NCBI GenBank assembly: GCA_003231975.1
Contig: QIKW01000270.1
Location: forward strand, 1 to 61,083
Length of the DNA: 61,083 bases
Direction: 5' to 3'
Origin: Acidimicrobiia bacterium
GTDB lineage: Bacteria; Actinomycetota; Acidimicrobiia; Acidimicrobiales; SZUA-35
Under the pieces are notes generated by a model, which did not search any database, was not told the origin of the DNA, and was given only the letters and a program-made list of their open reading frames with translations. The translations under genes were made by a program, and so were the position numbers. Shown here one piece after another: positions 4,154-50,500 of this stretch (the stretch's first letter is position 1; every line of letters starts with the position of its first letter).

Positions 4154-4158
4154 GGCGC

Positions 4159-4902: not shown

Positions 4903-5466
4903 CTAGATCAGATAGAGCACGGGGTAGAAGAACACCCAGACAATGTCAACGAAATGCCAGTACTTGACCCCTGCTTCAACCGGCCAAGAATCGTCGGCGT
5001 ACCGGCCCGCCTTGGCATTTCGAATCAGCACCGTAAGAAAGATCAGGCCGGTGATCACGTGGAAGGCATGAATCCCAGTCATCGTGAAGAACACCGTGCC
5101 AAACGCTGTCCCTGGAGGAAACTCCATGAACGCCTCATACCACTCAAAGGCCACGCCACCCAGAAAGATCGTGCCGAGAATCAATGTCGCCCAGAGGTAT
5201 TGCACCATTGCAGCCTGGTCGCCTTTGTGGGCTGCGTGTTCGGCTCTGAAAGCCGTGTAGCTGGAAGCCAGGAGAATGACAGTGATCACCAGGCCGATCG
5301 ACTGAGAGACAGCCTCGTCAACCTCGGTTCCCAACAAACTGAACCGGATGGCAATCAACCCAGCGAACAACATCGCCTCGGACAAGAAGAACAGCCACAG
5401 CCCGATGCGATTGATCTTGATTCGAGAAACGCCGTGCTCTAGGGGAGGGGCATCGGTAACGGTCAT
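4903..5466 (-). CDS. ctaE: Cytochrome c oxidase subunit III
   Basis: Polytopic COX3-like sequence. ATG 5466 overlaps the upstream stop (ATGA). Confidence 0.9.
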   Translation of the reverse strand: MTVTDAPPLEHGVSRIKINRIGLWLFFLSEAMLFAGLIAIRFSLLGTEVDEAVSQSIGLVITVILLASSYTAFRAEHAAHKGDQAAMVQYLWATLILGTIFLGGVAFEWYEAFMEFPPGTAFGTVFFTMTGIHAFHVITGLIFLTVLIRNAKAGRYADDSWPVEAGVKYWHFVDIVWVFFYPVLYLI

Positions 5467-5651
5467 GAGTGTTCGTTCCCAAAGATGTTTCTCAAGTGCA
5501 TAAACGCAACCAAGATGATCGCCGCCTTCGCAATGGAGATGATGAGGAGCCAAAAGAAGGCTCCGGCCACCGCTTCGGCGCTCACAAAGTACTCAATAAC
5601 TGTCAAGACACTAAGCACCACAATTGCTGTAAACCCTGGTGATTCTCTCAT
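5463..5651 (-). CDS. ctaF: Small cytochrome oxidase subunit IV (COX4_pro-like, 2 TM)
   Basis: 62 aa with two hydrophobic helices and VAFMHLRN. ATGA overlaps with both ctaD and ctaE. Confidence 0.65.
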   Translation of the reverse strand: MRESPGFTAIVVLSVLTVIEYFVSAEAVAGAFFWLLIISIAKAAIILVAFMHLRNIFGNEHS

Positions 5652-7483
5652 GCCTCCACCGTTTCTTGGATCTTTGGCAGCGTTCCGATGCCAAGGTCGG
5701 CATGGTCAGAGTCTGGCTCTCCATAGCCGTAAGGATCGGCCAGGATGATCGGGGGGACCTCAAAATTCTCATGCGGCGGTGGCGAAGGGACCTGCCATTC
5801 CAACGTACGAGCGCCCCACGGGTTGGCCGGAGCCTTCGCCCCCTTGATCCAGCTGTAAATGAAGTTGTAGAGGAACACAACGAAGCTCGTGCCCAGAAAG
5901 AACCCGGCCATCGAGATAACACGATTGGTGCCGACCAAATCCGGGGTGTAGTCAGCAACCCTGCGGTTCATCCCCTGGAGGCCAACGATGAACATCGGCA
6001 GGAACGTAACGTTGAACCCCACCATCATCCACCAGAAGTGAATCTTGCCGAGCCGATCGTTCATCATCCGGCCGGTCATCTTTGGGAACCAATAGTAGAT
6101 AGCTGCAAAGAGCCCGAAGATCCCCCCGCCGAGGACCACGTAATGGAGATGGGCAACAACGAAGTAGGTGTCTTGAAGCTGGATGTCGACCGGAACATCG
6201 GCCAGGAATACCCCTGTGATCCCTCCGATCAGGAAGTTGAAGAGCACAGCTAATGCGAACAACATTGGCAGTTCTAACCGGATCTTTCCAAGCCAAAGAG
6301 TTCCTACCGCAGACAAAAAGATCATTCCAGTCGGGATCGAGATCAACTCTGTGCTGGCCAGGAACGGCTTGCGAAGGGCCTCGGCCATGCCACTGGTGAA
6401 CATGTGGTGGGCCCAAACAAACATGCTCATGCCCATTATCCCAAGCAGCCCGCCAACCGCCCACTTGTATCCAAACAGCGGCTTCCGAGAGAAGTGCGAG
6501 ATGATCTCAAGGGTGATTCCGAAGGCTGGCAGGATCATGATGTAGACCGCGGGGTGCGAATAGAACCAGAAGATGTGCTGATACAGCAAGGGGTCCCCGC
6601 CCGAGGCCGGATCGAAGAACACCATTCCCGCCGTTCGGTCAAGCACCACCATAAGCATCGCAAGGGCAATGAACTGAGTGAAGATCAGCGACAGAATCGA
6701 GGTGACAAAGATGGACCAGACAAAGATGGGGAGCCTCATCCAGTTCATGCCCTTTGCCCTCATCGTCACCACGGTCACAATGATGTTGAGGGCGCCAATT
6801 ATTGACGACAACCCCAGGGTGAAGAACGCCAGGTTGAAGAACAGGCCGCCAACGTCACTTTCAACAGACAGCGGGGCGTATCCCGTCCAGCCCGTGTCGT
6901 AGCCGCCTGATACAAAGGAAACGGTCAGCGCAATAAGGACTGGGGGAATCAACCAGAACGAGAGGGCATTCAGCCTGGGGAAGGCCATGTCGTCAGCCCC
7001 GATCATGATCGGTACGACGAAGTTGCCAAAGGCACCAACGGTTGCTGCAACGGCGACGAACACCATCATCGTGCCGTGGAGGCTCATTATCGCGTTGTAT
7101 CGACCTGAGTCCAGCAGAGCTTCGCCGTTGTCCATCAGCTCATAGCGCATCAGCATTGCGAACAGCCCTGCCATGAAGAACATGGTGAGGAATTTGACCA
7201 GATACTGAATACCGATCACCTTGTGGTCGGTGTCGAAGTCAAGGTAGCGGCGCCAACCAGTAGTGGTGTAGGGCACCAGCTCCAGCCCAAACCATTCCCT
7301 AGCCCAGTATCGCCACACACCAACGGCCAACAACCAGCCGATGAGGGCGAACATCCAGGCTCCGGCCGAAACCGACTCAACCTCCCAAGCTCTTGCTCCG
7401 GTGGCCACACGAATGGTCATCAACAAGGCAGCGCCCAATATGTAACCGACTGCCCCGCCGATCAAACCGCGAACGATGTTCAT
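5648..7483 (-). CDS. ctaD: Cytochrome c oxidase subunit I (aa3-type) with an N-terminal 2-TM extension
   Basis: TDHKVIGIQYL, SHPAVYIMILP and WAHHMF motifs. ATG 7483 lies 4 nt after the AAGGGAG SD. Confidence 0.95.
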   Translation of the reverse strand: MNIVRGLIGGAVGYILGAALLMTIRVATGARAWEVESVSAGAWMFALIGWLLAVGVWRYWAREWFGLELVPYTTTGWRRYLDFDTDHKVIGIQYLVKFLTMFFMAGLFAMLMRYELMDNGEALLDSGRYNAIMSLHGTMMVFVAVAATVGAFGNFVVPIMIGADDMAFPRLNALSFWLIPPVLIALTVSFVSGGYDTGWTGYAPLSVESDVGGLFFNLAFFTLGLSSIIGALNIIVTVVTMRAKGMNWMRLPIFVWSIFVTSILSLIFTQFIALAMLMVVLDRTAGMVFFDPASGGDPLLYQHIFWFYSHPAVYIMILPAFGITLEIISHFSRKPLFGYKWAVGGLLGIMGMSMFVWAHHMFTSGMAEALRKPFLASTELISIPTGMIFLSAVGTLWLGKIRLELPMLFALAVLFNFLIGGITGVFLADVPVDIQLQDTYFVVAHLHYVVLGGGIFGLFAAIYYWFPKMTGRMMNDRLGKIHFWWMMVGFNVTFLPMFIVGLQGMNRRVADYTPDLVGTNRVISMAGFFLGTSFVVFLYNFIYSWIKGAKAPANPWGARTLEWQVPSPPPHENFEVPPIILADPYGYGEPDSDHADLGIGTLPKIQETVEA

Positions 7484-7535
7484 CAAGCTCCCTTTTCATT
7501 CGACATGGTCATCGACACCGTGATCTGTTTCACTT

Positions 7536-8360
7536 CTATCCCGCGGAAGCCTCAAGCCAAGCGTCGAATTCTGCTTCGGTCACAACGCTTACACCCGTCC
7601 ACATTCGAGCGTGGCCAACCCCGCAGAGTTCGGCACACTGCACTCTCAGCTCGTCAGCACTTTCGAAGGTTCCGAGCTTCTCAGCGGTCACCATCGTTGT
7701 GGTAATTATGCCCGGAACTGCATCCATCTTGATCCGGAAGGCCGGGATCCAGAACGAGTGGATTACATCCGTTGAGGAGATTCGGAACATGATTCGGGTG
7801 TCGATGGGCACCATTAGGGTTCCGCGGGTCTGCACACCAGACTCGGCGTATGTGTACTCCCAACTCCAGCGCTCACCCTTCACGTCAATCACCAGATCGG
7901 GTTCGGGGTAGGCTCGCAGCTCGTCCAACCCGCTGAATCCAGGAGTAATGATTACAACGATCGACAAGATCGTCGTGACGGCCAACCAACCAACAACGAA
8001 TGTCCGATTGGTTCGGATCGGCGGACCGTCAACATCTTGGCCCCGATCCCGGTCTCGAAGCAGCGAATAGCCGATAACCACCAACACAAAGGTGGCAATC
8101 GGCACCGCCATGAGCATCAACAGGTCAAACGCCTCATCGGTGATCCGAGCTTCGCGTGATGCGCCGAACGGATGCCAGTCGTAGGCGGTAACCGCCCACC
8201 AACCAAGCACGGTGGCGATCAACCAGGCTACGCCAACAACAACGAGGCGGTTACGAGTGTTCGATTCTTGCTCTCCCCCTGACACGATTCGGAAAGCTAC
8301 TACATCATGTAGCGGTCGTCCAGCCTTCGACGAATATCTGGACATGAACCCCGAAATCAA
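7536..8360 (-). CDS. ctaC: Cytochrome c oxidase subunit II (CuA centre, no fused cytochrome c domain)
   Basis: HSFWIPAFRIKMD and the CuA motif CAELCGVGHARM. The protein ends right after the CuA domain. The exact start is uncertain. Confidence 0.9.
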   Translation of the reverse strand: MISGFMSRYSSKAGRPLHDVVAFRIVSGGEQESNTRNRLVVVGVAWLIATVLGWWAVTAYDWHPFGASREARITDEAFDLLMLMAVPIATFVLVVIGYSLLRDRDRGQDVDGPPIRTNRTFVVGWLAVTTILSIVVIITPGFSGLDELRAYPEPDLVIDVKGERWSWEYTYAESGVQTRGTLMVPIDTRIMFRISSTDVIHSFWIPAFRIKMDAVPGIITTTMVTAEKLGTFESADELRVQCAELCGVGHARMWTGVSVVTEAEFDAWLEASAG

Positions 8361-33828: not shown

Positions 33829-34446
33829 TTAGCTGTGGATGCCGTGGTCGCGAGCCCACCGAGCGGCCGCGGCCCGGTCTGGGGCTCCGATGGTGGCGTA
33901 GACACTTGTGAGATGGGCCTTCACGGTCTTTTCGGCTATTCCGAGCCTGGTCGCGATCTGACGGTTGGTCAACCCTGCCTCGATCAGCTCAAGCACATCG
34001 TTTTCCCTGGTTGTGATCGACAGTCTGGAGGGACCCCTCGAATCCACGAGCGCTCGGGCCGCCGTGCTGTCTAAGTAGGACGCTCCAACCGAGGCGTCAC
34101 GAACCGCTCTGAGAATGTCTCCCGGCGGTGCGTCTTTCACCACATAGCCAATCATGCCCACATCGAGGCTGGCCAAGACACGGCGATCCTCACGAAACGC
34201 CGTCAACGCCACAATTGCAATCTCTGGATGCAGATCATGAATTGTCTTTGCGGCCTCGATGCCAGAGACCGGGCTCATGCTCAAATCCATCAACATCACA
34301 TCGGGGCTCACCTCAGAGGCAAGGGCGATTGCCTCTTGGCCGCTGGTGGCGACACCGACAAGAGCGATGTCTTCAGCATCGCCAAGCATCACCTGCAGTC
34401 CCTCACGAACAATATGGTGGTCATCGGCAATAGTTACCCGAATCAT
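33829..34446 (-). CDS. NarL/LuxR-family response regulator
   Basis: Receiver domain (DDHHIV..., MDLSM) plus the LuxR HTH (NRQIATRLGIAEKTVKAHL). ATGA overlap with the kinase gene. Confidence 0.9.
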   Translation of the reverse strand: MIRVTIADDHHIVREGLQVMLGDAEDIALVGVATSGQEAIALASEVSPDVMLMDLSMSPVSGIEAAKTIHDLHPEIAIVALTAFREDRRVLASLDVGMIGYVVKDAPPGDILRAVRDASVGASYLDSTAARALVDSRGPSRLSITTRENDVLELIEAGLTNRQIATRLGIAEKTVKAHLTSVYATIGAPDRAAAARWARDHGIHS

Positions 34447-35759
34447 GCTGGTATCTCGAGCCGAAGGGAGGTGCCCTTTGGTTCCCTTGCATCTATGGCA
34501 ACATCAGCCTCAACGTCGGCTGCCAGGCCTCGCAGTAACTTAAGACCCATGCCCTTCTGATCAGAGACCGACGGTTCGTAGCCGCCGCCATCGTCCATGA
34601 CCGAAGCAACCATGCTTCTCTCATCAGAGACCAGAGACACCTGCACGTTGTCGGCGTTTGCGTGCTTCACAACGTTGCGCAGTCCTTCTTGGACAAATCG
34701 GTACACGAGGCGCTGATGGGGGCCAACGTCTGCTTCAACAGAAACCTTTGTGTCCAAGCCGTACCGATGGTTGTACTGATCGGCCAAATCATTCAAAGCG
34801 GCCTCAAGGCCTACCTCAACTAGGTCAGGAGGGTGGATCTCGATCGCAAGCGTGCGGAGCGACTGAAGCGAGTGCCTCAGGCCTGCCGTTGCTTTTTCGA
34901 TCCTCATCGAAACGTCTCGATTTCCATTGGCCGAGCGGTTTCCGTTAACCGAATTTCCTGCTGCCGACACAAGCATCAGGGTGCCAGACAAGTCTTGGAT
35001 CACGCCGTCGTGGAGATCGGCCGCTATGCGGCGACGCTCAAGCATCGACGCATCGACGGCCCGGGTCAAAAGCTGCTCGCGCTCTAGCGCCGAGCGCACC
35101 ATCCGAGCCTCCATTCTGGCTGCTGTCAACAGTGTAAGGAGGCCAACCAACGCCAAGCTGATCAGCACAATAGGCACCACCGTTGAACGGATTCGGGCAC
35201 TTGCTGCGTCTACTGAACCCGTGGTGAAGTACGTCTCGAAGAGCATGGTTTCGCCATTGGGGCCGTCGAAAGGGAGATAGACCTCCAGAAGTGGCCCGAG
35301 TTCCTGTTCGAATCGGTTTTCGGGATCCCCGAGGTCAAGACTCTCGGCCACCGCTACCGCTTCGGTAACTGCTCGAAGCCGATCCGGCTGGATCGAATAG
35401 TGTTCACCAATCAACTCGGTCGCGTCGGAGTAGACGATGGTTCCGTTGGAGAGCCAAACCTTTACTCGCACAAACGACTCGTCGAGCAGGCGATCCCTTA
35501 CTCGCTCGTCCAGCTTGGCCAAGGCCTCAGGATCGCCGTCGATCAGTTCTGCTGTTAACAACGGCGCAAGCACAGACCGAAGCGACGCCTCGGTGACAGA
35601 CCGAGCTTCATTCAGAGCTTCTCGGTGGCCAGCTCGCTCAGAAGCCCAGACAGCTCCAGCAGCTACCAGGGCCAAGCCCAGGAGAGTCAGAATCAGAAAC
35701 TGTAAGAAAGGGCCATGCCGCCAACCCTGTGTCGCCCCTGGGGCTGCTTCTGCTGTCAT
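34443..35759 (-). CDS. Sensor histidine kinase (HisKA_3 / NarX-DesK type)
   Basis: RRRIAADLHDGVIQDL H-box, HATPase_c motifs, two TM helices. ATG 35759 is preferred over the ORF-track start 35858. Confidence 0.85.
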   Translation of the reverse strand: MTAEAAPGATQGWRHGPFLQFLILTLLGLALVAAGAVWASERAGHREALNEARSVTEASLRSVLAPLLTAELIDGDPEALAKLDERVRDRLLDESFVRVKVWLSNGTIVYSDATELIGEHYSIQPDRLRAVTEAVAVAESLDLGDPENRFEQELGPLLEVYLPFDGPNGETMLFETYFTTGSVDAASARIRSTVVPIVLISLALVGLLTLLTAARMEARMVRSALEREQLLTRAVDASMLERRRIAADLHDGVIQDLSGTLMLVSAAGNSVNGNRSANGNRDVSMRIEKATAGLRHSLQSLRTLAIEIHPPDLVEVGLEAALNDLADQYNHRYGLDTKVSVEADVGPHQRLVYRFVQEGLRNVVKHANADNVQVSLVSDERSMVASVMDDGGGYEPSVSDQKGMGLKLLRGLAADVEADVAIDAREPKGTSLRLEIPA

Positions 35760-35966
35760 GTCTCCCCTTTGCCGAGCCGTCGAGGCGGGTATAGGAGTCT
35801 GCCCGCAGCGCGGGGCAGACTCCTGGGTGTTTCGGCAACTATATGAACGACGGGCCAACAGAACAGGAAACCACCGAAACCGAAATCTTTGGGAGAACTC
35901 TCAGCCTGGTGAGCCAGCGCCGCCCGGCCTTGCGCGGATCCAATGCACCCGGGCCTGGCTGGCCCG

Positions 35967-36740
35967 TTAGGTGCGCACCTGGGCCCGGCTGCCGGGCTTA
36001 CTGGCGGGCTTAATGAAGGCGGTTGCCTGGAGCGCAACAACCGCAAGACCAGCTACCAGAAACGGGACTCGGAACCAGTCGAGGTTTGGCAACGGCGCTT
36101 TGTGAAACGACGGTGTGTAATGGATGAACAGGAAGTAGCCGCCATGCAACAGGGCGAGGAGAAGAACAGACTGGGCGAACCGGTGCAACCAGGTCCAAGC
36201 CGGGCGGCCAAGTCGGCGCAGGGCAAAGTCAGACGAGGTTGCCGCCAGGATAAGGGCCAGTATCAGAGCCACACTTCCGATGATATTGCTAAGACCAAAA
36301 CCAGGCTCCAGCCGCACTTCTCTTCCTAGCTGGGGGACAAACTCATAACCGAGGAACCGACGGAGGCTCCAACGGGCCCACCCATTGAGGATCAGAAATC
36401 CGTGCAGCGAAGCGGTAAGCGCGAACCAGATGCCAATTTGCCTGCGCCAGCGCAGCAGAGACCGCGTCGACGGCGCAAGCTTTGCGATGGGACCGATGAC
36501 CAAACTGAGAAGCAGCAGCATATAGGAGGCGTCGCCTACTGCCTTCCAGAAGCGCATGTCGCCAGTCCAGTTGGACCGCGTCAACCAGAAAATCCAAACC
36601 AGACCGGCCGACAAAACAGCAACCGCGGCATGACGGAGCAAGCGCTGTCCGGAGCGAGCCGACGAGTTCGGAATCTGCTTGGTAGACTTGGTTTTACTGC
36701 CGGACGCTGGTTTCTTCTTGGTACTTGTCTGTGTGGCCAC
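35967..36740 (-). CDS. Ferric-reductase-like transmembrane (MsrQ/YedZ-like) heme-b membrane protein
   Basis: Six TM helices with conserved His (SLHGF, LLHGGYF). Lys-rich N-terminus. Confidence 0.55.
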   Translation of the reverse strand: MATQTSTKKKPASGSKTKSTKQIPNSSARSGQRLLRHAAVAVLSAGLVWIFWLTRSNWTGDMRFWKAVGDASYMLLLLSLVIGPIAKLAPSTRSLLRWRRQIGIWFALTASLHGFLILNGWARWSLRRFLGYEFVPQLGREVRLEPGFGLSNIIGSVALILALILAATSSDFALRRLGRPAWTWLHRFAQSVLLLALLHGGYFLFIHYTPSFHKAPLPNLDWFRVPFLVAGLAVVALQATAFIKPASKPGSRAQVRT

Positions 36741-37246: not shown

Positions 37247-38770
37247 TCAGCTGCTTGGACTGCTAATCGGGGCTTTGAATGTACTTCGCACCGTCACAAC
37301 AACGCGAGCGATGATTGCGGCAGAAAGCGCAACCAGAATTGCCCCTACCAAGAGTTGAGCGGTGGTTGAGTCTGCGGATGCCGAGGCCCCATAGAGGGCG
37401 GTTCGTTTTGTGGTTACCGACTCTACGTTCACCCCCACCTTCACCGGCAGCCATGCCTCTAGTCGGTCTTGACCGGTTGTGGCCTCAACGTAGATGAACC
37501 AGCGACCGTCCCGGTCAAGTTGCACATCGCCAACCCAAGCCCCTGTAGCGTCGGCTGCCAACGATCCCTCAAGCAGCCTGCCTGCCCGGCGGGCAACGAT
37601 TCGCACCGGCTCGGTCTCTGGGGCAGCACTTTCAGCGGTAACTGTGACCAACCGACCAGATGTCGAGGCCGACAGCGCGATGTCAGCAACCTCAATTCCC
37701 TGCCCAGGGTCGTGGGCCGCGGCCGGTGGCGGGACAGAGGCCAGGGCCAAAACCACCACGGCGAATGCACTCACAGTCATGGCGCCTCCGGCCAGGGCTC
37801 CGGGTTTGGCTGCGCCTGCGGAAAGCGGGTCAAAGAACAGAATCGTTGCCGCCACTGCCGCCGCGGCGATTGCCACCCCAAGGGCTGCCTCGGCAATCGT
37901 GACAGAAACACCACCTGGCACAACCGACAGGTATGGCACATACACAACGAATAGGGCAACCACCAGTGATAAAGCCCGAGTCAGAACCGACCAGCCGCGT
38001 CGCCGAGCGAAGTCTGCGGCGGCCAGTGCAGGCACAACAGCAGGCACGATCGGTGGCGAAAAATCCGTGACCCGAAGAAGGCCGATGACCACGATCATCA
38101 TCGCTGTGTAGGCCAGGCCGGCCAGGGTGGCGGGCCACCGAACTCGGCGAAACAATACCGACTGCACCATCAACGCAGCGGCCGACAAGCCGGCTGCCAT
38201 AATTGGCAGGTACCACAGAGGCGAGAACTGAGCCACGTCGGTGTCGTACTCGAGAACCAGTACTTGCCAGCCGCCAATCACGCCTGCTCCGGACGCAGCC
38301 AAAAGCAGAATCCCTGGCTTCCCAACCTCGCTACTACTACGGCCCGCCACCAGCAGAACCCCTGAACCGAGCGCAATGGTTCCAACCAGCGCCAGAAGAT
38401 GCGGCGGGCTCCAGAGAACCGCGTCGCGTCCGAACGCGGTGTGCCACCACTCATCCACGGGGGCCGAGCCAAGCGTGACCAAAGCCCCAACCACCCCGAC
38501 ACCAATGGGACCGGAGACCACGGCGCGGCTTCCGTCGAGCCGCTGATGCCAACCCCATCGCACAACCACGCCAACCGCAACGGCAACTCCAAGGTAGAGC
38601 GCCAGGTGGGGTGCGCTCAAAAACTCGTCGCGACCCCTGTCGGTATGCCATGCGTCATCCCAATAGACCCCGAACAGCGCGGTGGCAAAGCCAGCGACGG
38701 CGAGAGGCACGGTGCCTGCCACCGAGAAGGCTGGGCGGTGCTGCATCTTTGCATCAATGGTGTTGCTCAC
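37247..38770 (-). CDS. Polytopic membrane protein with a duplicated WHT..GRD...PHL motif and a C-terminal extracytoplasmic beta-rich domain, unknown function
   Basis: YWDDAWHTDRGRDEFLSAPHLALY and DEWWHTAFGRDAVLWSPPHLLAL. About 10 TM helices, then AAAHDPGQG..., then a final TM helix. Confidence 0.6.
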   Translation of the reverse strand: MSNTIDAKMQHRPAFSVAGTVPLAVAGFATALFGVYWDDAWHTDRGRDEFLSAPHLALYLGVAVAVGVVVRWGWHQRLDGSRAVVSGPIGVGVVGALVTLGSAPVDEWWHTAFGRDAVLWSPPHLLALVGTIALGSGVLLVAGRSSSEVGKPGILLLAASGAGVIGGWQVLVLEYDTDVAQFSPLWYLPIMAAGLSAAALMVQSVLFRRVRWPATLAGLAYTAMMIVVIGLLRVTDFSPPIVPAVVPALAAADFARRRGWSVLTRALSLVVALFVVYVPYLSVVPGGVSVTIAEAALGVAIAAAAVAATILFFDPLSAGAAKPGALAGGAMTVSAFAVVVLALASVPPPAAAHDPGQGIEVADIALSASTSGRLVTVTAESAAPETEPVRIVARRAGRLLEGSLAADATGAWVGDVQLDRDGRWFIYVEATTGQDRLEAWLPVKVGVNVESVTTKRTALYGASASADSTTAQLLVGAILVALSAAIIARVVVTVRSTFKAPISSPSS

Positions 38771-38891: not shown

Positions 38892-39611
38892 TCAGACCGA
38901 CTGGACAACGCTTCCGTTTGCTTGACGGGCAAGTTGACCGATGACCACCAGGCCCGTCACGGCAGCAGCGAGCACGCCTATCGAGGTGAGGTGCTGACGT
39001 GTGAGCCCGCCGCCAACGTGAGGCAACCAGACGGATCCAGCGGCCCGCACGGCCGCGACTGAAGCAACACCTGCCAACACAACTACGGCGTCGGACGCCC
39101 CGTTTCTTGACAACCTTCGCAAACCAACCGCGGCCACTGCTGCCCCTGCGGCCATGAACAGACCGATTGGCAACATTCTGGCGCCCAGCCCGGGTGGGAC
39201 CAGCCCAACGGAACTCTCAGGGCCAAAACAGCCATCACGAAACAGACAAGCCGCCTCATAACCGGCGTAGCTGACAACCGAGAGAGCCGTGATGTCGGCA
39301 ACTCTTGTTAGCGAGCCAAAGCCAGCTCTCTTGGCGCCGACCACCAAAAGGGCGCAGGCGGCTCCCACCCCAGGCCAGAATTCAACCCCGCTACGAATTA
39401 TCAGCATGTCCGAGATGCTTCCGATCGAGCTTGGATCGTCAATGGCCAGGGCCACAAGTCTGCCAACGGCCAGGCCTGCAAACGCTGGGCCGAGAGCCAC
39501 ATCGGTGAACCCGACCGAGTCCTTGTGGCTGGAAAGAGGCCACCAGTTCATCACAAAGGCGGGCAATCCAAGACCGACAATCATGCTGAACAGCAGGCCG
39601 TAGTCGATCAC
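38892..39611 (-). CDS. Integral membrane protein, distantly Lgt (prolipoprotein diacylglyceryl transferase)-like
   Basis: Weak resemblance to Lgt core segments (IIRSGVEFWPGVGA, AKRAGF...VADI, LFRDGCFG). 4-nt overlap with the upstream TlpA-like gene. Confidence 0.4.
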   Translation of the reverse strand: MIDYGLLFSMIVGLGLPAFVMNWWPLSSHKDSVGFTDVALGPAFAGLAVGRLVALAIDDPSSIGSISDMLIIRSGVEFWPGVGAACALLVVGAKRAGFGSLTRVADITALSVVSYAGYEAACLFRDGCFGPESSVGLVPPGLGARMLPIGLFMAAGAAVAAVGLRRLSRNGASDAVVVLAGVASVAAVRAAGSVWLPHVGGGLTRQHLTSIGVLAAAVTGLVVIGQLARQANGSVVQSV

Positions 39612-40186
39612 CTCAGGGCGTCTTCAATAAGGCTGGCAAGGCGCTGCTCAGACACCCCGCCGTTGACCCTGGCGCGAATTGTGCCGTCGGCATCGAACAC
39701 GTAGGTGGTTGGATACGCAGTCAGATCCAGCGCGACGCGAATCTCGCCCGTAATGTCGAAGACGTTCGGATAGGTGAGGCCCAACTCGTCGAGGAACTTC
39801 TGGGCCTCCTCAGGGTCGTCGTTCGACGCAACCCCCAGAATCACCGCCCGGCCCTTGTAGGTGTCTGCTGCGTTTTGCAGCAACGGCATTTCGGTCCGAC
39901 AAGGAGCGCACCACGACGCCCAGATATTCACCACAACCGGCTGGCCCCGCAGCCCGACCAATAGACCTTCGAACTCAGACAACCCAGCCACGGGGAAGGA
40001 CCCTTCGGCGGGCATCGCAACCGGCTCTCCGGATGCCGCAAACTCCGGCAGATCGGGTTGACGCAACGCGGTTTGCCCAACCCACACTGCGGCCACCACA
40101 GCCAAAGCGATCATCCCAAGACGGCGGACGGAAAACCGTCCTCGGACCAGTTCGGAGTCGCTCACGTTCGCAGTATCGCAGCCCAT
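39608..40186 (-). CDS. TlpA/ResA/DsbE-family thiol:disulfide oxidoreductase (membrane-anchored thioredoxin fold)
   Basis: VVNIWASWCAPCRTEMP active site and an N-terminal TM anchor. Confidence 0.85.
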   Translation of the reverse strand: MGCDTANVSDSELVRGRFSVRRLGMIALAVVAAVWVGQTALRQPDLPEFAASGEPVAMPAEGSFPVAGLSEFEGLLVGLRGQPVVVNIWASWCAPCRTEMPLLQNAADTYKGRAVILGVASNDDPEEAQKFLDELGLTYPNVFDITGEIRVALDLTAYPTTYVFDADGTIRARVNGGVSEQRLASLIEDALR

Positions 40187-40362
40187 CGGCGGACATCGCG
40201 TTCGGGGCTAGATTCAGCCCCCTCGGCCTCGTGATCCCAGTGAGGCGACAAGCCGCGCCATTTCCAACGAGGCGGTGTCCTAGGATTCTCGAGCTAGCAG
40301 AGATCGCCGGCTGTGAGCGCTTGGGTGCGCTACAAGGCGTAGGCCTAAAAACAAGGAGCCGC

Positions 40363-40926
40363 ATGGCCAACAAACAATCAAAACGAGCAAGACGCGAGGC
40401 TGCACTAAAAGCCAAGCAACGCAAGCAGCGGATGACGTGGGGAGGAATGACCGCAGCAATCGTGCTGGGAATCGGACTCTTTGTGTTCTTGGGTGGCAGC
40501 TCGGCCAACGAGGCAGCCGCTGTTGCGCCCGATTTCGAACTTGAAGACGCCGATGGTGGCACCGTCAAGCTGAGCGACTTCCGAGGCCAACCCGTAGCCG
40601 TAACCTTCATGCACACGTGGTGACCAGCTTGTAACGCCAGTGCCCCCGAGTTACGGGCGGCCTACGAAAAGTACGAAGCACAAGGCTTTGAAGTCTTGTC
40701 AATCAGCGTTCAAGAAGGCAATGCAGAAGTAGACGAGTTCATCGATCGCTACGGCCTTACCTATTCTTTCCTACTCGACCGAACCGGTGAAATCAGTAAC
40801 AACTACGAGGTGCAAAACACCCCAACCACCTACTTCATCGCACCCGATGGCACCATCGCCGACGTGTTGGCTGGCGTTGTCAGCCAACGCTGGCTCGAGG
40901 GGAACATCGACGACTACATCAGCTAA
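40363..40926 (+). CDS. TlpA/ResA-like thioredoxin-fold protein with an in-frame TGA (40621..40623) at the first active-site Cys. Candidate selenoprotein (W-U-P-A-C), alternatively a nonsense pseudogene
   Basis: ATG 40363 lies 4 nt after the AAGGAG SD. ORFs 40033..40623 and 40696..40926 share a frame, with 24 stop-free codons between them. The joined 187-codon product is a full-length TM-anchored TlpA-like protein. Confidence 0.6.
40624..40660 (+). promoter_or_regulatory. Candidate bacterial SECIS-like hairpin immediately 3' of the in-frame UGA
   Basis: 40627-40635 (GCUUGUAAC) pairs with 40650-40658 (GUUACGGGC), including two G-U pairs. C40624/C40625 pair with G40660/G40659 across a bulged A40626. 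The apical region is 14 nt and contains GU. Confidence 0.4.
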
Positions 40927-40953
40927 AACAATTCTCGGGTCCGGTCGCGAACG

Positions 40954-41802
40954 ATGAAATCCCCAGCGACCGGGCTCAAGAGCCAAGCCTTCACCCGCGC
41001 CGTTGCGCTTGTGTCGAGTGCCGCCCTGCTGTTGGCAGCGTGTGGCACCGCCAGCCCGATCGCACCGTCGGTGCGCCCAGTTGTGGAGCGACTGGACAAG
41101 GCGGTTGTGCCCCCGAGATGGAGCTTCCGTTACATACCAAACAGCGCATCGCCGTTCCTGGCGTGCCTGGCAGGAATCGATGAAGTATCAGGGGTGATGG
41201 ACATCGAAAACGGGGTGGTCTTCCTGGAACCGAACAGAGATGCCCCGCCAATAGTCGTCACCGACACCTCCTTCATGATTGCGGCGAACAACTCGGGCAG
41301 CCGACAGTGGACCGAGGTGCCATGGAACGCTGAGAACGACCGACGCTCTTTGGCTCCACTGTTCGGCGACGTTCTCACCGGGTTTATTGCCGACGGAATT
41401 AGAGCACCGGACCTCAACCTCACGGCCCTGGCCGCAGTCAGCATCGCCGAGTCGGTTGAGCCGGCTGATACGCCAATCGGACTGGTTGGGGACTCCTTCA
41501 CCGTCACCATGGACTCAGAGCGGTATCGAGCTGAACTTGAGGCTGAAGGAGCACCGGTTCCCGACCAAACACCCAGCCTGACGGCGACGGTGAACCCAGA
41601 CGGGCTGGTAATAGCGCTGGCAATTGGTACCGCCGCTTCCTCGCCCGCTGACGATGAACCCCACGGCAGCGGCTATTTCGTCACTGCCGCATTTGACGAG
41701 GTCAATCCCGTTCTGGTGCCGGATGCGGCTATCCGCCGAACCACTTCCCTTAGTGCGGTCCTTTACCCAGGGCCAGACGAATCCTGCTCGTTTCGCCCGT
41801 AA
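40954..41802 (+). CDS. Lipoprotein of unknown function
   Basis: Signal peptide with lipobox LLAAC. No recognisable domain. Confidence 0.6.
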   Translation: MKSPATGLKSQAFTRAVALVSSAALLLAACGTASPIAPSVRPVVERLDKAVVPPRWSFRYIPNSASPFLACLAGIDEVSGVMDIENGVVFLEPNRDAPPIVVTDTSFMIAANNSGSRQWTEVPWNAENDRRSLAPLFGDVLTGFIADGIRAPDLNLTALAAVSIAESVEPADTPIGLVGDSFTVTMDSERYRAELEAEGAPVPDQTPSLTATVNPDGLVIALAIGTAASSPADDEPHGSGYFVTAAFDEVNPVLVPDAAIRRTTSLSAVLYPGPDESCSFRP

Positions 41803-41928
41803 CACCAAGCGTCGGGGTGATGCTGGGCTGCTTGGGTCTTCATGGTTCCGGAGCCCCGACACAGAACTATATGTCCCGTCGGTCACACCGAAACGATGTC
41901 ATGGCGGTCGTCGCTTACGCTGGGCACG

Positions 41929-43392
41929 ATGCAAACTCCGAACCCCACACGCCGACGCTTTCTTGGGTTTGTCGGTGCCGCAGGTGCCAGCGCCTGGCTG
42001 GCAGGCTGTTTCCGCGACCCCGACGCTGGGAGAATCACTGTCTCCCCAAACGGTTCATCATTCGCTGAGCCTGAGGTTCTAAGCAGCGAAAGCGGTCGGC
42101 TTGAGCTGACCCTGCGGGCCGAGCCAAACGACATCCCCTGGGGTGACTCCACCCGGTATGGCTACACCTACAACGGCAACACCCCTGGACCAACGTTGCG
42201 AGTCAAGCCCGGCGACCAACTGACAATCCATCTGGAAAATCAGCTTGATGCCGACACGAATCTGCACACCCACGGGCTGCACGTATCGCCATCAGGAAAC
42301 GGCGACAACATCTTCGTCCGGGTCCCTCCCGGCGGATCTCGCACCTACTCCTACCAGATCCCCGCCGATCATCGCAGCGGCTTGTTCTGGTATCACCCTC
42401 ACGCTCATGGCACGGTGGCTCCACAAGTGGCTGCCGGCCTGGCCGGCGCCATCGTGATCACAGACCAGATCGATGAACTGCCCGAAATGGCAGGCTCCAC
42501 CGAACGAACCTGGATCTTGTCGGACCCCCCAATCGGCGAAGGCTCTGGCATCTTGGACGCCAGCGGCATGGATCGGATGCAGGGCCGCGAGGGCAACAAG
42601 GTGCTTGTGAACGGAATTGAGCAGCCAGACATTACCACCCAAGCGGGGGTGCTCGAACGCTGGCGGATCGTGAATGCCAGCTCGTCCAGGTATTACCGAC
42701 TTGGCCTGGATGACCACCCCCTGCACATCGTGGCGACCGACGGGGGCAGGATCGCAAAGCCGGTTTCGGTCTCGGAAATTCTGCTGTCTCCCGGCGAACG
42801 CGCCGAGTTCTTCGTTAGACCCTCAAAGCCGGGAAGCTACGCATTCAGGGCCCTGGAATACGACCGCGGCGGAATGGGTATGGGAATGGGCGGCGGAATG
42901 ATGGGCGGAGGAGGGGGCTCTGAGGAGTTGGCGGTTGCCACAATGACTGTTACCGGAGATGCCGCCCCAGCCGCGCTTCCTGCTGGCCTTGTTGATGCCG
43001 ACACCTTGATCGTGCCTGCTCATTCAGCGTCTCGCGTTCTGGAACTGGGCATGGGTGGCGGCGGCGGGGGCCAGATGATGTCGTTCACAATCGACGACAA
43101 GATCTTCGACGGCGACCGCACCGACATCACTGCTGGCCTCAACACAGTCGAAGAGTGGGAGATCCGCAACACATCCCCCATGGATCATCCGCTGCATCTT
43201 CACGTCTGGTCGTTTCTGGTGGCCGATGAAACACTTGGGAGCGTCTGGAAAGACACAATTAATGTGCCAGCCAACCAATCGGTCAAGGTTGTGGTCCCCT
43301 TCGCCGCCATCCCAGGCAGAACCGTGTACCACTGCCACATCCTGGACCACGAAGACCTCGGCATGATGGGTGTAATCGACGTGCCCGGCTGA
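41929..43392 (+). CDS. Multicopper oxidase (CueO/laccase-like), Tat-exported lipoprotein with Met/Gly-rich segments
   Basis: RRRFLGF Tat motif plus lipobox LAGC. Copper motifs HTHGLH, WYHPHAHG, HPLHLH and HCHILDHEDLGMM. GGMGMGMGGGMMGGGGG insert. The start could instead be 41896 or 41842. Confidence 0.9.
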   Translation: MQTPNPTRRRFLGFVGAAGASAWLAGCFRDPDAGRITVSPNGSSFAEPEVLSSESGRLELTLRAEPNDIPWGDSTRYGYTYNGNTPGPTLRVKPGDQLTIHLENQLDADTNLHTHGLHVSPSGNGDNIFVRVPPGGSRTYSYQIPADHRSGLFWYHPHAHGTVAPQVAAGLAGAIVITDQIDELPEMAGSTERTWILSDPPIGEGSGILDASGMDRMQGREGNKVLVNGIEQPDITTQAGVLERWRIVNASSSRYYRLGLDDHPLHIVATDGGRIAKPVSVSEILLSPGERAEFFVRPSKPGSYAFRALEYDRGGMGMGMGGGMMGGGGGSEELAVATMTVTGDAAPAALPAGLVDADTLIVPAHSASRVLELGMGGGGGGQMMSFTIDDKIFDGDRTDITAGLNTVEEWEIRNTSPMDHPLHLHVWSFLVADETLGSVWKDTINVPANQSVKVVVPFAAIPGRTVYHCHILDHEDLGMMGVIDVPG

Positions 43393-44531: not shown

Positions 44532-47500
44532 ATGTTTCGCCGAATTCCCGCCGCGCTTGCGAGCTTCGTAGTGTTTGCTGCGCTGGTTACCGTTCCACTA
44601 GTCGGTGGAACACCTGCTGCCGAAGCTGCCGCAGACGACAACTTCTCACTAACCAAGTCAGACAGTGTTGGCGGCGAGGCCCTCATTGGAGAGAACGTTA
44701 CCTACACCCTCACCGCATCTGGCACGCAGTCTTCAGCTGCGTATCTGTACAACCTGTCGTTCCGGGATGTGCTGCCTGCCGGTGTGTCCTTCGTTTCGGC
44801 CGATCCGGCTCCGACTGCAATTCTGAGCGACGTCCCAACCGCCGGACAGACCACGCTCATCTGGGAAAACACCAGCGACCTGCCTGCGGCTTCCAACGCA
44901 TCCGTTAGCTACACAATCGACACCAACCCAGACTTCGCCGGTGGCACTTCTGGCTCCGGCACCGTTCCTGTTGGCGCAACCGTTCCCAACTCAGCTCAAG
45001 CAGTGGCATCCCTGAACGCATTCCTAATCCCAGACTGGAGCCCAACCACTGGTGCCTTCACCGGCGACTTCGACGGCGAAGCCAGCGCCACCAACTCTCT
45101 GAACGTTATTGCGTTCCGCGTTACGAAGAGCGGCCCCGGCGAGTTGCTGCGCGGCGTGCACGACAACGGCTTCGGCGGCCGCAGCGGCTCCGCCGGAGAC
45201 ACATTCACAATCGAGATCCGTAACAATCCGGACTACGCAACCAACTCGGTCTCACTTCTAGACGTGCTTGACCCTCAGCTCGAGTTCTTGGGCTGCGCTA
45301 GTTATTATCCGCTAGGCGACGACAACTCAACCGACGTGCCTTTCCGAGAGTCCGCGGCGGCCCCAGATGAGGAATGGGCGGGCTCGGGCCAGATGGCAAC
45401 AGGAGCAGGCACCTGCACCACACCAACTTCGGTTGACACCGTCGACGCAGGCATCGGCGGCGGTTTGGCCAACACCGAGGTTCTCTGGGACCTCGGGAAC
45501 CTCGCGCCAAACGATGTGGTCACGGTTCAGTACCTTGCCGGTATCCCAATGCGGGCCAACACAACCACCTGGACCACCGTTGGTGGCCAACCCACAGCGG
45601 CCTCACTGGATCAGGGCCGCAACCTCGACAACAACTCGGGCCCCTCGACCAACGAGTTGGACCGAACGCTGAACGCAGACCCCGAACTACTGACCGACGG
45701 TGCGCCCGCCATTGCCAACACAGCAACTGCCAGCGGCACCTACACGCCGTCTGGCGCTGTTGCCACCGACACCGACATCCTCCAGACCGAGGCTGAAGAC
45801 ATCATCATCACGAAGAGCGCGGCGGGAACCTTGAACCACGGAGCGGTGATCTCGAACCAACTTACGGTCACGACTGGCGAGTACCGAGACTTCACCAGCT
45901 TGGTGGTTCGAGACCTTCTGCCAAGTGCGCTTTGTTACACCGGCGGCTTTGGGTCAGACAACACCCCGGGCGGCTCAGACTGGAACAGCAACGACTGCTC
46001 GGGAGCAGGCAGCGGAGCTGGCAGCTCTACCTCGGTGCGAGAAATAGCGGCGGGCGGGCCGTACGGTACCGGCCGATTCGAGATCGTCTGGGACCAAACA
46101 AGCGTGCCAGGTTTGGCCGACCTGGACAGCGACTCTTCGATCACAATTGGCTACGACGCTGTGGTCCGCACCGACTACCGCGGTGGCCTTGCCAGGCTTA
46201 CAGCAGAACCCGTTCTAGCTGGCGACTCTGTCACCAATGTGGCTGAGGTTTCCGGGCCAGACTTTGTGGTTGCCGCCCACGTCAACGACGGAGGCGCAGA
46301 CGACGAGGCTGACGGCGGGATCGACGGAGACACCACGTCTGCCAGCTTGTCCAACAGCCTGCCAAATATCAACAAGCGCATCTCGGCCAAGGCCGGGCCC
46401 CTAGCCACCGGCAGCAACGTAACTGGCGCGGTCTGCGGTGCTTCTTATGGCTCGATCACCTGGCAAGACACCGTTGCCACTGGCTTCGGCCCTGGCGAAA
46501 TCGTGTGTTTCGAACTGGGAGCAAGCTTTCCAAGCACAATCGACTACGAGAACGTCGTAATCCAGGACCTCCTACCTCCCGGCTACACCTACGTTGCCGG
46601 ATCAGCAGCCAGGATCGCCTCGATCGATGACCTCCCGGGAACAACATTTGACGCCACCACCCTCCGCTGGAACCTCGGAACGGTTAACAACCCCGGGCAC
46701 CAGTTCCGTTGGGTAATTGCTGTGCAGATTGGTGTGCCAGACGACGGTGTTGCACTTGACATCAACGCCAACCTCCAGAAGATGACCCACAACCAAAGCG
46801 CCGGGACCGTGTTCCAGTACCGAGACGAGGTGCCTGCTGAGTGGACCGAACCCCAGCTTGACCTGGCAAAGGGAGTTCAGAACGTTGACGCTCCAGACAA
46901 CACGCTTGACCTTGGACCGAACGGAATCGACTTTGACGGATCAACCACCGGTGGATCGACCTCGGTTCAGGTTCAGGCAGATGCGGTTGTCACCTTCAGG
47001 GTTGATGTTTCCAACGACGGGAACGAGCCCGCCCTGGCCGTTGAGGTCTGGGACCGAATTCCAACCGGCTTCACCTGCACAAACGTTTCAGCCATCAGTG
47101 CCGGCGGCTCATGTTCGGCCGGGCTTATCAGCTGGACAGTGCCAACGATCACGTCGGCGACACCAGCTCAGCTCACCTACGACCTTACAGTTCCAGCCGA
47201 CGTTGTTGCCGACGAGAGTTGGACCAACGAGGCAGGCGTGCGCACCTACCAGGCCGCGCTCAACTCAGACACCGCAGCCGACTCTGATCCGAACACCAAC
47301 GGCGGCCGCTACGACTACTACCCCCGCAACAACATCGACCCAACCGTTACATCCAACACCGATGACGCCGACGACGTGGCATTCATGTTCACCGCCGCCC
47401 CGTCTCTGGCCAAGGCTCAGGCCTCCGGTATCAGCGAAGCTGGCAACCCAAGCAATGGCACGCCCGCTGCTGGCCTGGACCGGGCAACGATCGGCGAGAT

Positions 47501-50500
47501 CAACCAGTACGAACTCCAGCTGACCATCCCCGACGGAACCGCCGTCTACAGCGGCGTGCTGAGCGACTTCCTGCCAACGGGCCTCACCTACTTCGAGGGG
47601 CTTGCGGCCTTCGGCGGCAGCGATCAAGTTCTGACCCCAACGGTCGTCTCCACCGATTCTGATGTTGATGGAGACGCCCTTGGTGGCGGCACCCTCAGCA
47701 CCCCGGCCGTTGGCTCTGGCGGGGCCTTGGTCTACACCCTGCCTGCCGACTACAGGAACCCGGCCGGATCCGGCGACGACACCGTAACGGTCACGTTCTA
47801 CGTGCAGGTTGCAAGCGGCGCGGCTGGCACCACTAGGAACAACCGCGGCCGGTTCGATTGGGACGATCTGGGCGGCACGGCCCAAACCAGAGTGGATAGT
47901 AACAACGCCCGACTGCGTCTGGTTGAGCCATCACCCTCGGTGACAAAGAGCCACACCTCCCCCGTTGGTAACAACGTGGCGCCAGGCGACACCATCACCT
48001 ACCGAATTGACGTTGCGAACGCTTCAGGTTCCAACCGCTCAGTTCTCCACGACGTAACCGTTGTTGATGACGTACCCATTGGCACAACCCCGCTTCAGGC
48101 CGGCGGCGTCCCCGCAATCGCAGACGGCGACCTGATTCCCAGCACAGGCATTAGCCCAGCAGGCTCATTCAACGGGGTCTGGAGCCAGACCAATCGCCAG
48201 ATCACCTGGACGCCTTCAAACTGGGCTCCCCTGGTTTCGCTCGATCCCGGCGTTACCCGTAGCTTCACATACCAAACCGCGGTGGACGATCCAGCTACCG
48301 CCAGCGGCACTCTTTTGAACACCGCATCCATCACCGGATCGAACCTGGCGACGGCCGATCCGAACTTCGCAGACGGTCGCACCTATAACGATTCAGACAC
48401 CGATCTGGTCAACCTGCCAGCGGCAACCATTGTGAAAGACATTGAGCCGTTGCCGTCAGACTCCACAGACCGGGCAACGGTAACCATCGGCGAGCCCCTC
48501 GATTTCGACATCGAGATCACACTGCCCGCCAACACCAGGGCCTATGACCTCACCCTGTTCGACCAGCTGCCAGCCGGCATCACGTTCGACAGCTTCGGGA
48601 CTCCTGCCCTTGGCGGCGCCTGCTCGGTGATCCCTGGCCTTGGTGCCCTGGCGGCAGGTGACATCGAAACGTTCGGCCCCGGCGTTGGAGGAGACAGCTC
48701 GCGCATTGCCTGGTTCCTTGGCGACGTTCTTGCCAACGGCTCAACCTGCACCATCACCGTTCCCTACACGGTCCATGTAGACCAGAACGCAGCCGACGGC
48801 AACACGCTCGACAACTCGGCCACCTTGGTGTGGAACAACACAGACGAAGTTCCTGACCAGTCACCGCCGTCACTGCCTGCCGGCTATGACGACCCGACCA
48901 GCTCCAGCTGGGACATCAGCGACGGCCCAGACGTAGAGTCGATCCTGGTGGTTGAGCCCCAGTTGGAGCTTGACAAGGATGTCACCTACGCATCAGGGGC
49001 CACGCTTGGCCCTTGCGATTCCACAGCAGGCAACAACCGCTTCGGCGCCAACGACACCGACACCGCGGCCGGGCTAACCAACGGCTGCGACGTTGAGTCA
49101 GGCGACCAACTTCGCTACACCCTTACCGTCACCAACTCTGGCACTTCGGGAGCCAACGACACAACCGTCGTTGACACCCTGCCGGTGGGATTTGAACCTT
49201 TGGTAGCACCAGGCGGAGCGATCGCCGCAAACGGCGCAACCATCGTTGGAGCCAGCGGCTCCGCTGGAATTTGGAACACCACCAACCGCACAATCACCTG
49301 GACCATCACAGGCCCAATCGCCCCAACAGGCGGAGCGGTAACGCTTGACTACGACGTGCAGCTTGATCCTTCAGCCTCGCTAACACAGGGCCAGGACCTG
49401 ACAAACACCGCCGACATTGGCACGTACTTCGGCCTTGACCTGGCAACCCGCACGGCTATCACGAACCCCGACGTTCCAACCTACGGCAATGCGCCAGCGG
49501 CAACCCGCGGGGCACTATTGCCAGATGTTGTGACCGTTGAGGTTCAGTTCCCTGAGCTCCAGATCACAAAAACCGCTATCGACGATGCAACCGACGCTCG
49601 CTTCGATCAGCCATTCGAGTGGCTGATCCAAGTTGAGAACATCGCTCCGTCAGCTTCGGCTTTCAACGTCGACGTTCGAGACCTCCTGCCTGCGGGCTGG
49701 ACCTACGTTGCAAACTCGGCCCTGGTAACCACCCCGTTCGGTGGGCCAACCCAAATCGAGCCCGCAATTTTCGCCTCGAACCTGACCTGGGACAACGCAG
49801 TTTCGGGCCCAGCACAACCTCTCGGACCCGGTGAGACAATCACTATCACTCTCGACGCGGTGCCAGAAGCAGCACTGCTGGCGCCAGACGTTCCAACCGC
49901 AATCACCAATACCGGCCCAGCCAACTTGCACACGAACAGCGCCGTGGTTACCGGTGAAGACTCCAGCGGCGCACTCGGCTGCTGCGACACCGGTGCTGGC
50001 ATCGTCAGCTACACCGACAGCGATTCAGCAGACGCCATCGTTCGTCGAGTTGACCTTGAGGTCTCCAAGGCCATCGTGGATTCTGCTCCCATCTACTTCG
50101 GCGACATCGTTACCTACGTGGTTGATGTAACCAACCAGGGCCCAAGCGACGCAACCGCAGTAACCCTTACCGACGTGTTCGCCCCGGGTCACGCATACCT
50201 CAGCACCACATCCATTGATGCAGGCACCTTCACCCCAGGCACTTCAACGTGGGACATTGGCACCCTGGCAAGCGGCGCAACCGTGCAGCTTGTCATCCAG
50301 CTTGAGGTCAACGCCGTTGGCCCAATCACCAACACCGCCCAGATCACAACCACTGATCAGTGGGACGTGGACTCCACCCCAGACAACGATGTTGAACTTG
50401 AGGACGACCAGGAAACCGTAACCATCACCGGCCTCGACACCGATCTTGGCAACCGTGTATGGCTGGACCTGAATGCAGACGGCGTGCAGGATGGAAGCGA

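Follow-up and report, generated by a model that had tools for sequence, protein, structure and literature searches.

The 61,083-nucleotide contig QIKW01000270.1, from an Acidimicrobiia bacterium and referred to below, over its whole length, as the window, carries on its forward strand at 40363-40926 a reading frame that is interrupted by a single TGA codon and that public gene calls (NCBI, JGI) divide into two products, of 86 (40363-40623) and 76 (40696-40926) amino acids. A preliminary description of this DNA, made from its letters, had joined the two into one thioredoxin-fold oxidoreductase and proposed it as a candidate selenoprotein, i.e. one in which UGA is read as selenocysteine (Sec). 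This proposal is strongly supported by conservation of the TGA, by purifying selection downstream of it and by a hairpin of the Sec insertion sequence (SECIS) type, and we consider it highly probable, on comparative sequence evidence, that 40363-40926 is one intact gene for a membrane-anchored, extracytoplasmic oxidoreductase of the ResA/TlpA type with UGA read as Sec in a U-P-A-C motif. The gene contains the following features.

40353-40358, forward strand: Shine-Dalgarno sequence AAGGAG, read from the sequence, with a 4-nt spacer to ATG 40363.
40363-40926, forward strand: predicted ResA/TlpA-like selenoprotein coding sequence, 187 codons including Sec by translation, stop TAA at 40924-40926.
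40441-40497, forward strand: single N-terminal transmembrane signal anchor, residues 27-45 (GGMTAAIVLGIGLFVFLGG), the top Kyte-Doolittle 19-mer (mean 1.94).
40621-40623, forward strand: UGA, candidate Sec codon at the first (nucleophilic) position of UxxC, aligned with the first Cys of the ResA CxxC.
40630-40632, forward strand: TGT, second (resolving) Cys of U-P-A-C, invariant in alignment column C90.
40639-40663, forward strand: candidate bacterial SECIS (bSECIS) hairpin, AG-u-GCCCCCG [AGUUA] CGGG-c-GGCCU, an RNAalifold consensus extended by one pair.
40822-40824, forward strand: CCA, conserved and invariant Pro (P154) of the thioredoxin-fold TP(T)TYF loop opposite the active site, aligned with the ResA PLPTTF loop.

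Open reading frames 40033-40623 and 40696-40926 lie in one frame, with just the TGA and 24 sense codons between them, as the preliminary description had stated, and the ribosome-binding site that it placed before ATG 40363 is present. The joined 187-codon product is likewise as described, reading ...GQPVAVTFMHTW-[TGA]-PACNASAPELRAAY... around the codon in question and ending at the TAA. Its assertions that the protein is anchored in the membrane and that the TGA takes the place of the first redox Cys are also borne out: one hydrophobic helix lies behind a basic, Lys/Arg-rich N-terminal stretch, a layout that recurs in relatives, and in an alignment with ResA the TGA is paired exactly with the first Cys of the CxxC. 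By the positive-inside rule, the redox domain would lie outside the cytoplasm. Pfam searches with the joined protein returned AhpC-TSA (PF00578; 3.8e-31) and Redoxin (1.9e-24), with Thioredoxin_8 also matched, and the closest solved structure by sequence is that of Bacillus subtilis ResA (E=7e-25, 126 residues aligned). The identical locus, TGA included, is also found in another public contig record (L164), with products called at 564-824 and 261-491. The gene is mis-annotated: in the public records a single intact gene is called as two fragments.

Relatives were gathered by a protein search, a one-genome-per-species scan and a JGI metagenome scan, and the aligned codon was mapped in each. The protein collection searched held no full-length member of the clade. 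It yielded three N-terminal fragments (P0049, P0054, P0077), each ending in ...FMHTW, and on their contigs, as on that of P0001 (L005), the next codon is TGA, after which the frame runs on through PAC/PVC/AAC-NASAPE... to complete a thioredoxin fold. Each of the 26 close relatives retrieved (L001-L005, L012-L026, L083-L087, L091; about 21 distinct sequences) has TGA at this codon, and their protein identity to the window gene is 49-75% (lower for L026, a truncated copy). These include all 15 close genome loci (L012-L026), from 11 Acidimicrobiia-type metagenome-assembled genomes (MAGs) and four Chloroflexota/Anaerolineae MAGs, and all six close metagenome loci (L083-L087, L091), a pattern far beyond chance. 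TGC or TGT occupies the aligned codon in more than 100 more distant relatives, and Cys is also found there in P0002 (L163). In a neighbour-joining tree the Sec forms make up one clade, split into an Acidimicrobiia branch, which includes the window gene, and a Chloroflexota branch; the sister of this clade is the Cys form P0002 (FMQAE-C-HSC). One Acidimicrobiales MAG (metawrap_LS4_58) harbours two diverged TGA copies, L018 (JBBSLH010000194.1) and L022 (JBBSLH010000003.1).

The stretch of about 100 codons past the TGA is colinear in all members of the clade and has the same end point. Nei-Gojobori dN/dS values are 0.05-0.22 for codons +17 to +84 and 0.06-0.21 for the 32 codons before the TGA; as the downstream values are as low as those upstream, this measure rules out both a pseudogene and a genuine stop. 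Where the preliminary description had set conserved Cys/TGA in sister orthologs against scattered stops, every ortholog is found to keep the TGA, the downstream frame and the SECIS-type hairpin.

Immediately beyond the TGA the gene is further constrained at the RNA level. Degeneracy-normalised synonymous-codon entropy is 0.24 in codons +4 to +14 vs 0.74 over the remaining codons (Mann-Whitney p=1.7e-7), making this the lowest-entropy 11-codon segment of the whole gene; pairwise dS there is 0-0.14, compared with 0.4 to saturated in the flanks, and four- and six-fold degenerate codons (CCC, CGG, GCC) are nearly fixed, even between phyla. The candidate hairpin at 40639-40663 consists of 9 bp with two 1-nt bulges and a 5-nt loop (40649-40653) that has G in second place, followed by U, and that lies 25 nt past the UGA; what variation is left at third-codon positions coincides exactly with the bulges and the final base of the loop. 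The bSECIS model specifies a loop of 3-9 nt with a G in the first two loop positions, usually then G/U, an upper stem of 4-16 bp and a UGA-loop distance of 16-37 nt (PMC13188914), and the hairpin conforms to this geometry. Its energy in the window sequence is -12.5 kcal/mol for 31 nt, and it is part of the minimum-energy fold of 15 of the 21 members. Across the alignment the hairpin cells are 95.2% paired; only one of 500 column shuffles attains this level, and all slid controls fall well below it. The sole compensatory change is in L086, where pair 27-42 is A-U in place of C-G; in L003, L004 and L023 the pair moves to A27-U41.

In one relative (L085, JGI contig Ga0116152_10000841, 2840-2891) an unrelated, stronger hairpin, AGCGCACC[GGC]GGUGCGCU with an outer stem (-20.8 kcal/mol), occupies the same place, and the peptide encoded there is altered along with it, to APAVRSAY, an apparent case of SECIS turnover. 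The Cys sister L163 is without the hairpin, at -6.9 kcal/mol for the 55-nt segment vs -12 to -21 in Sec members. A covariance model (R1) run against 41 sources returned a single element for each family locus and no others; the DNA searched thus contains no second selenoprotein with this type of SECIS.

Several observations weigh against reading the locus as a selenoprotein gene. Covariation in the hairpin is thin, most pairs being invariant around the one compensatory change, because the element itself hardly varies; one or two pairs are broken in L005, L012, L083 and L087; the window hairpin taken alone is modestly better than shuffled sequences (z=-1.7); and, folded as a single sequence, a longer 86-nt segment of the window has a competing long stem as its minimum-energy structure. 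Rfam returned nothing relevant, either at the gathering threshold for the whole window or at E<=10 for 40560-40760, as expected from the poor representation of bacterial SECIS elements in that database. Searches confined to the 61-kb window and 1.57 Mb of fetched loci detected no selA, selB, selD or tRNA-Sec: a tRNA-Sec search of the window and 16 Sec-bearing loci gave none, and tblastn with Escherichia coli SelA, SelB and SelD (approximate query sequences) against the window and 163 loci matched solely a GTPase domain in L056. Finally, no ccdA adjoins the Sec gene in the window, in its closest relative (L012) or in the Chloroflexota loci; in other relatives a ccdA directly precedes it (see below). 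The long stem (40627-40635/40650-40658, 14-nt loop) was itself considered as the conserved element and rejected: it is 86% paired on the alignment, a level matched by 356/500 shuffles, with many broken pairs.

As to lineage, the preliminary description had taken Sec use to be uncommon here, which overstates its rarity: selC, selA and selD, together with a divergent selB, are reported in 84/84 complete genomes of Actinomarinales, another order of Acidimicrobiia (bioRxiv 10.64898/2026.04.03.716425), and in selenoprotein-rich Chloroflexota the Dehalococcoidia have among the richest selenoproteomes in BSepDB (PMC13326102).

Explanations other than Sec insertion, i.e. a pseudogene, read-through or reassignment, and a split gene, are between them quite unlikely. 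The one that survives best, itself very unlikely, is that UGA is decoded without selenium, through either a reassigned code (Trp/Gly) or near-cognate read-through (Trp/Cys) stimulated by the hairpin, which could in principle promote read-through too; the negative searches for Sec machinery in the window and loci would accord with this, as would the stored JGI product P0001 for the L005 relative, which has W at the TGA position. However, TGA is the normal stop of 13/22 Pfam-supported window genes, in agreement with the preliminary description, which had considered it a genuine stop elsewhere in the window; the genetic code is therefore standard, and stop-codon usage rules out reassignment. Moreover the codon replaces the catalytic Cys of the CxxC, a position at which neither Trp nor Gly would leave a functional protein; the hairpin has the geometry specific to a bSECIS, conserved loop G included; and Sec use is documented in both lineages (bioRxiv 10.64898/2026.04.03.716425; PMC13326102). 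Further in-frame-TGA candidates in the window were all rejected as merely antisense frames within known genes.

It is more improbable still that the TGA is a real stop, with an 86-aa anchored N-terminal half made either alone or alongside a 76-aa C-terminal half that starts at TTG 40696. Whilst this matches the annotation in public records, neither half is a complete thioredoxin fold and the active-site motif itself is cut in two; no part of the gene is more conserved, in protein or in DNA, than the 24 codons between the called frames; and the second frame has no conserved start or ribosome-binding site, relatives being without a start there. Least probable of all is a nonsense pseudogene, in which a TGY-to-TGA mutation in a Cys-type TlpA gene left the downstream frame as a decaying remnant, since the two pieces given by gene callers and the decayed copies that exist elsewhere (L026, cut right after the hairpin; L006-L011, 3' part only) are outweighed by TGA at the same codon in 26 relatives from two phyla, whose 49-75% identity excludes assembly copies of one sequence, by the lack of any close relative with Cys at that position, by an intact downstream frame with dN/dS of 0.05-0.22 and by the RNA-level constraint immediately past the TGA.

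The decayed copies differ in what they retain. In L026 (Acidimicrobiaceae MAG, CAXBAZ010000020.1, 8583-8630) the N-terminal half, TGA and hairpin are kept and the sequence diverges completely right after ...GGCGGCCTA, followed by a stop; the upstream ccdA is reduced to a 54-residue remnant, and decay or rearrangement of the copy, or else an assembly join, is the probable cause. L006 (777-1109) holds a 5'-truncated family remnant, with the identical product P0003 on 10 Logan contigs (L006-L011). It keeps the C-terminal two thirds (64% identical to the window protein) and the 3' part of the SECIS (model positions 17-55, 41 bits), the anchor and UxxC region being swapped for unrelated sequence after a cupredoxin-like open reading frame. 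A second, unrelated family with an in-frame TGA was encountered in Burkholderiales/Betaproteobacteria MAGs (L073 at about 10133, L076, L078, L079, L082). All five of these loci read RPVVVTFMPFAFTGG-[TGA]-TNQVNGFRANYE, the TGA occupying the peroxidatic position (TxxU) of a Prx/AhpC-like protein, and by its sequence this family looks like the known Sec-peroxiredoxin type.

The genes that surround the Sec gene in the window are as follows.

33829-35858, reverse strand: LuxR-type response regulator and histidine kinase.
35967-36740, reverse strand: MsrQ/Ferric_reduct-like haem-b membrane protein (PF01794, 5.7e-10; NCBIfam MsrQ, 3.7e-12, under its cut-off).
37247-38770, reverse strand: 507-aa polytopic membrane protein, no family assigned.
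38892-39611, reverse strand: 239-aa membrane protein with an invariant C-x5-C (YEAAC.FRDGC.GP), distantly Lgt-like, its start overlapping the stop of the Cys-type paralog by 4 nt.
39608-40186, reverse strand: divergent Cys-type TlpA/ResA paralog with WCAPC, matched in Pfam and NCBIfam.
40954-41802, forward strand: 282-aa lipoprotein-like protein, no family, 27 nt downstream of the Sec gene.
41842-43392, forward strand: multicopper oxidase, 39 nt past the preceding gene (Pfam Cu-oxidase, Cu-oxidase_2, Cu-oxidase_3).

The neighbours conserved in relatives are ccdA, the MsrQ-like protein and the Cys-type TlpA. In at least 10 relatives (L013-L018, L025, L084, L086, L091) a ccdA-like gene of the CcdA/DsbD type (PF02683, 28.0 bits vs a cut-off of 27.1) immediately precedes the Sec gene on the same strand, ending 0-140 nt before its start, a linkage that is genomic only. 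The MsrQ-like gene is the most widely conserved neighbour, present at 10/15 loci including the Chloroflexota-clade L001 and L085. The divergent WCAPC paralog is encoded where the preliminary description had placed it, and the Cys-type TlpA and the C-x5-C protein are encoded near the Sec gene in 7-8 Acidimicrobiia loci. As the start of the C-x5-C gene overlaps the stop of the Cys-TlpA gene by 4 nt, its product could be a membrane redox partner.

The family of the C-x5-C protein has 260 matches at E<=1e-3, the named ones coming from Acidimicrobiales/Acidimicrobiia MAGs, and shows the further invariant motifs SDM.IIRSGVEFWP and S.WLPH.G.G.TRQH; PF01790 (Lgt) is recorded for some homologs, whereas the window copy has no Pfam or NCBIfam match. 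Searches of Pfam and NCBIfam with this protein and with the products of 37247-38770 and 40954-41802, permissive thresholds included, gave no family. The 37247-38770 product contains the motif W-H-T-x-x-G-R-D twice (YWDDAWHTDRGRDEF, DEWWHTAFGRDAV) and homologs of it neighbour the Sec gene in L017, L018 and L084; a non-significant match to AmoC (E=0.028) is all that points to a family. A promoter/terminator scan of 40100-41050, otherwise uninformative, found no terminator-like site on the forward strand between the Sec gene and 40954-41802, and these two genes are probably co-transcribed. At L022 the ccdA, Cys-TlpA, C-x5-C protein and MsrQ-like genes are differently arranged, with a multicopper oxidase 1.9 kb upstream. 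On the Chloroflexota-type Logan contig L001 (383-8309) the Sec gene is preceded by a YceI-domain gene, and the region also encodes a cupredoxin, a YkuD transpeptidase, a C39-like peptidase, a DUF2085 membrane protein, an MsrQ-like protein and a LuxR-type response regulator, the last two forming the same pairing as in the window.

The preliminary description had further placed the gene among copper and cytochrome-oxidase-maturation genes. This stands in so far as the multicopper oxidase lies downstream; the cytochrome c oxidase operon, in contrast, is 32 kb away, and no oxidase-maturation genes were found nearby. A distant homolog of the multicopper oxidase (about 27% identity, opposite strand) occurs near the Sec gene in just two other loci, which makes it a weak lead, and a link to copper or to cytochrome-oxidase maturation is weakly supported. 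The oxidase operon (3266-8360, reverse strand) comprises COX2 (7536-8360), COX1 (5648-7486), COX3 (4903-5553) and a UbiA-family, haem O synthase-like gene (3266-4240), and shows that the organism is aerobic. At 44532-53153 the forward strand encodes a giant predicted surface protein of 2873 aa with DUF11, SdrD B-like, Cna-B/SpaA-like and CarboxypepD_reg repeats.

For the Sec reading of the gene, the following mechanism may be envisaged. The UGA at 40621-40623 would be recoded co-translationally, with the hairpin 15-40 nt downstream (40639-40663, loop AGUUA) acting as a bacterial SECIS that recruits SelB with Sec-tRNASec, so that the ribosome inserts Sec and does not terminate. The N-terminal signal anchor would set the thioredoxin-fold domain outside the membrane, where the selenolate could attack substrate disulfides, or sulfenic or metal-bound thiols, and Cys90 would resolve the selenenylsulfide. 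CcdA is an established electron donor for reductases of the ResA/TlpA type and, given the adjacent ccdA, a reductive pathway is the best reading: in most Acidimicrobiia relatives the oxidised U-C pair would probably be re-reduced by the CcdA-type transporter encoded immediately upstream, electrons passing from cytoplasmic thioredoxin to CcdA, to the Sec-TlpA and on to an envelope substrate. This substrate might be an envelope copper protein, given the multicopper oxidase that follows in the window, or the conserved MsrQ-like/Cys-TlpA module. A wider proposal is tentative, and we regard it as doubtful: that the Sec-TlpA, its own CcdA, the MsrQ-like haem-b protein, the C-x5-C protein and the Cys-TlpA might constitute a distinct, obligately selenium-dependent and so far undescribed envelope redox module for the maturation or repair of copper or redox proteins outside the cytoplasm of aerobic Acidimicrobiia and Anaerolineae, with a SECIS so constrained that it would dictate, in two phyla, the peptide NASAPE[LF]RAAY directly behind the active site.

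The novelty of the gene was overstated in the preliminary description, as predicted bacterial selenoproteins have long included thiol:disulfide oxidoreductases of the UxxC Prx-like/TlpA-like kind (PMC1088965; PMC13188914); the concept is unchanged, thioredoxin-fold selenoproteins of this type having been known for about 20 years (since 2004-2005). What is added is a well-supported predicted exported selenoprotein in aerobic, high-GC Acidimicrobiia and in Anaerolineae-type Chloroflexota, abundant environmental lineages in which the gene would imply a working Sec system and a selenium requirement. The SECIS is a clean example, near-invariant in two phyla, replaced once and absent in the Cys sister, and could be useful for training predictors of SECIS elements and selenoproteins, whilst the ccdA linkage offers a concrete, testable electron pathway.

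Among known systems, the window protein most invites comparison with the Prx-like family, PF00578-matching thioredoxin-fold UxxC selenoproteins that are not peroxiredoxins and were described in a Sargasso Sea survey (PMC1088965). Selenoproteins named 'Prx-like thiol:disulfide oxidoreductase' are tabulated in PMC13188914 and PMC9312934, and the table of the former also lists 'Thiol:disulfide interchange protein', 'Redoxin family protein' and 'UGC-containing TlpA'. By description, and not by alignment with the prototype WP_010940744.1, the window protein shares with this family a best match to PF00578 and UxxC (here U-P-A-C) in place of the TxxU of Sec-peroxiredoxins; in both, Sec forms far outnumber Cys forms and occurrence is in environmental or marine metagenomes. 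The window clade differs in its N-terminal anchor, its signature FMH[TS][WFY]-U-xxC-NASAPE[LF]RAAY and its own highly conserved SECIS, in being confined so far to Acidimicrobiia and Chloroflexota, and in its synteny with ccdA and MsrQ-like genes.

No NCBIfam model reached its cut-off for the window protein. The ResA-like WAxxUGC selenoprotein model (NF041054) represents the same TlpA/ResA fold and so provides curated precedent for Sec in it, but its motif is UGC, compared with UxxC at the classical position here, and the window protein scores 51.6 bits vs a cut-off of 300 on this 354-position model. Membership in NF041054 was accordingly rejected, as it was for PrxU (NF040737; 19.1 vs 270) and the SelL-related model (NF040769; 36.3 vs 120), all three scores being below cut-off and the motifs different.

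By sequence, the closest solved structures are those of B. subtilis ResA (PDB 1st9, 3c71; E value as above) and Bradyrhizobium TlpA (PDB 1jfu, 4txo; E=2e-11), which have in common with the window protein a membrane-anchored thioredoxin fold, the W-x-x-x-C active-site position, the Pro loop and, in many relatives, an adjoining ccdA. Unlike ResA, the window protein would carry Sec for the nucleophilic Cys and has UPAC-NASAPE where ResA has CEPC-KKE; in addition, neither resB/resC (cytochrome c synthase) nor sco lies near the window gene, and the Cys-type paralog alongside may do the job of ResA. With 116.7 bits vs a cut-off of 170 for the NCBIfam ResA model (NF002854), and 47.4 vs 230 for the TlpA equivalog, the window protein is, by these scores, a relative of ResA/TlpA and not an equivalog.

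At the RNA level the candidate element has in common with the E. coli fdhF-type SECIS and the bSECISearch consensus a hairpin within the coding sequence just past the UGA, a small loop with G then U, a single-nucleotide bulge in the 5' arm and the 25-nt spacing. It is without sequence resemblance to the E. coli element and differs further in being nearly invariant in two phyla, where it fixes NASAPE[LF]RAAY, and in having been swapped for an unrelated hairpin in L085.

A last comparison concerns function. Etrx1 and Etrx2 of Streptococcus pneumoniae are fed by CcdA and serve envelope repair (MsrAB2), not cytochrome c maturation. These proteins (PDB 2yp6, 4hqz) differ from the window protein in being Cys enzymes and lipoproteins as opposed to a signal-anchored predicted Sec protein, and no MsrA, MsrB or MsrP was seen adjoining the Sec gene here. 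Nevertheless, they too are TlpA-like extracytoplasmic reductases, matched by the window protein at E of about 3e-14, and given the MsrQ-like neighbour a functional analogy with the CcdA-Etrx1/Etrx2 system is plausible.

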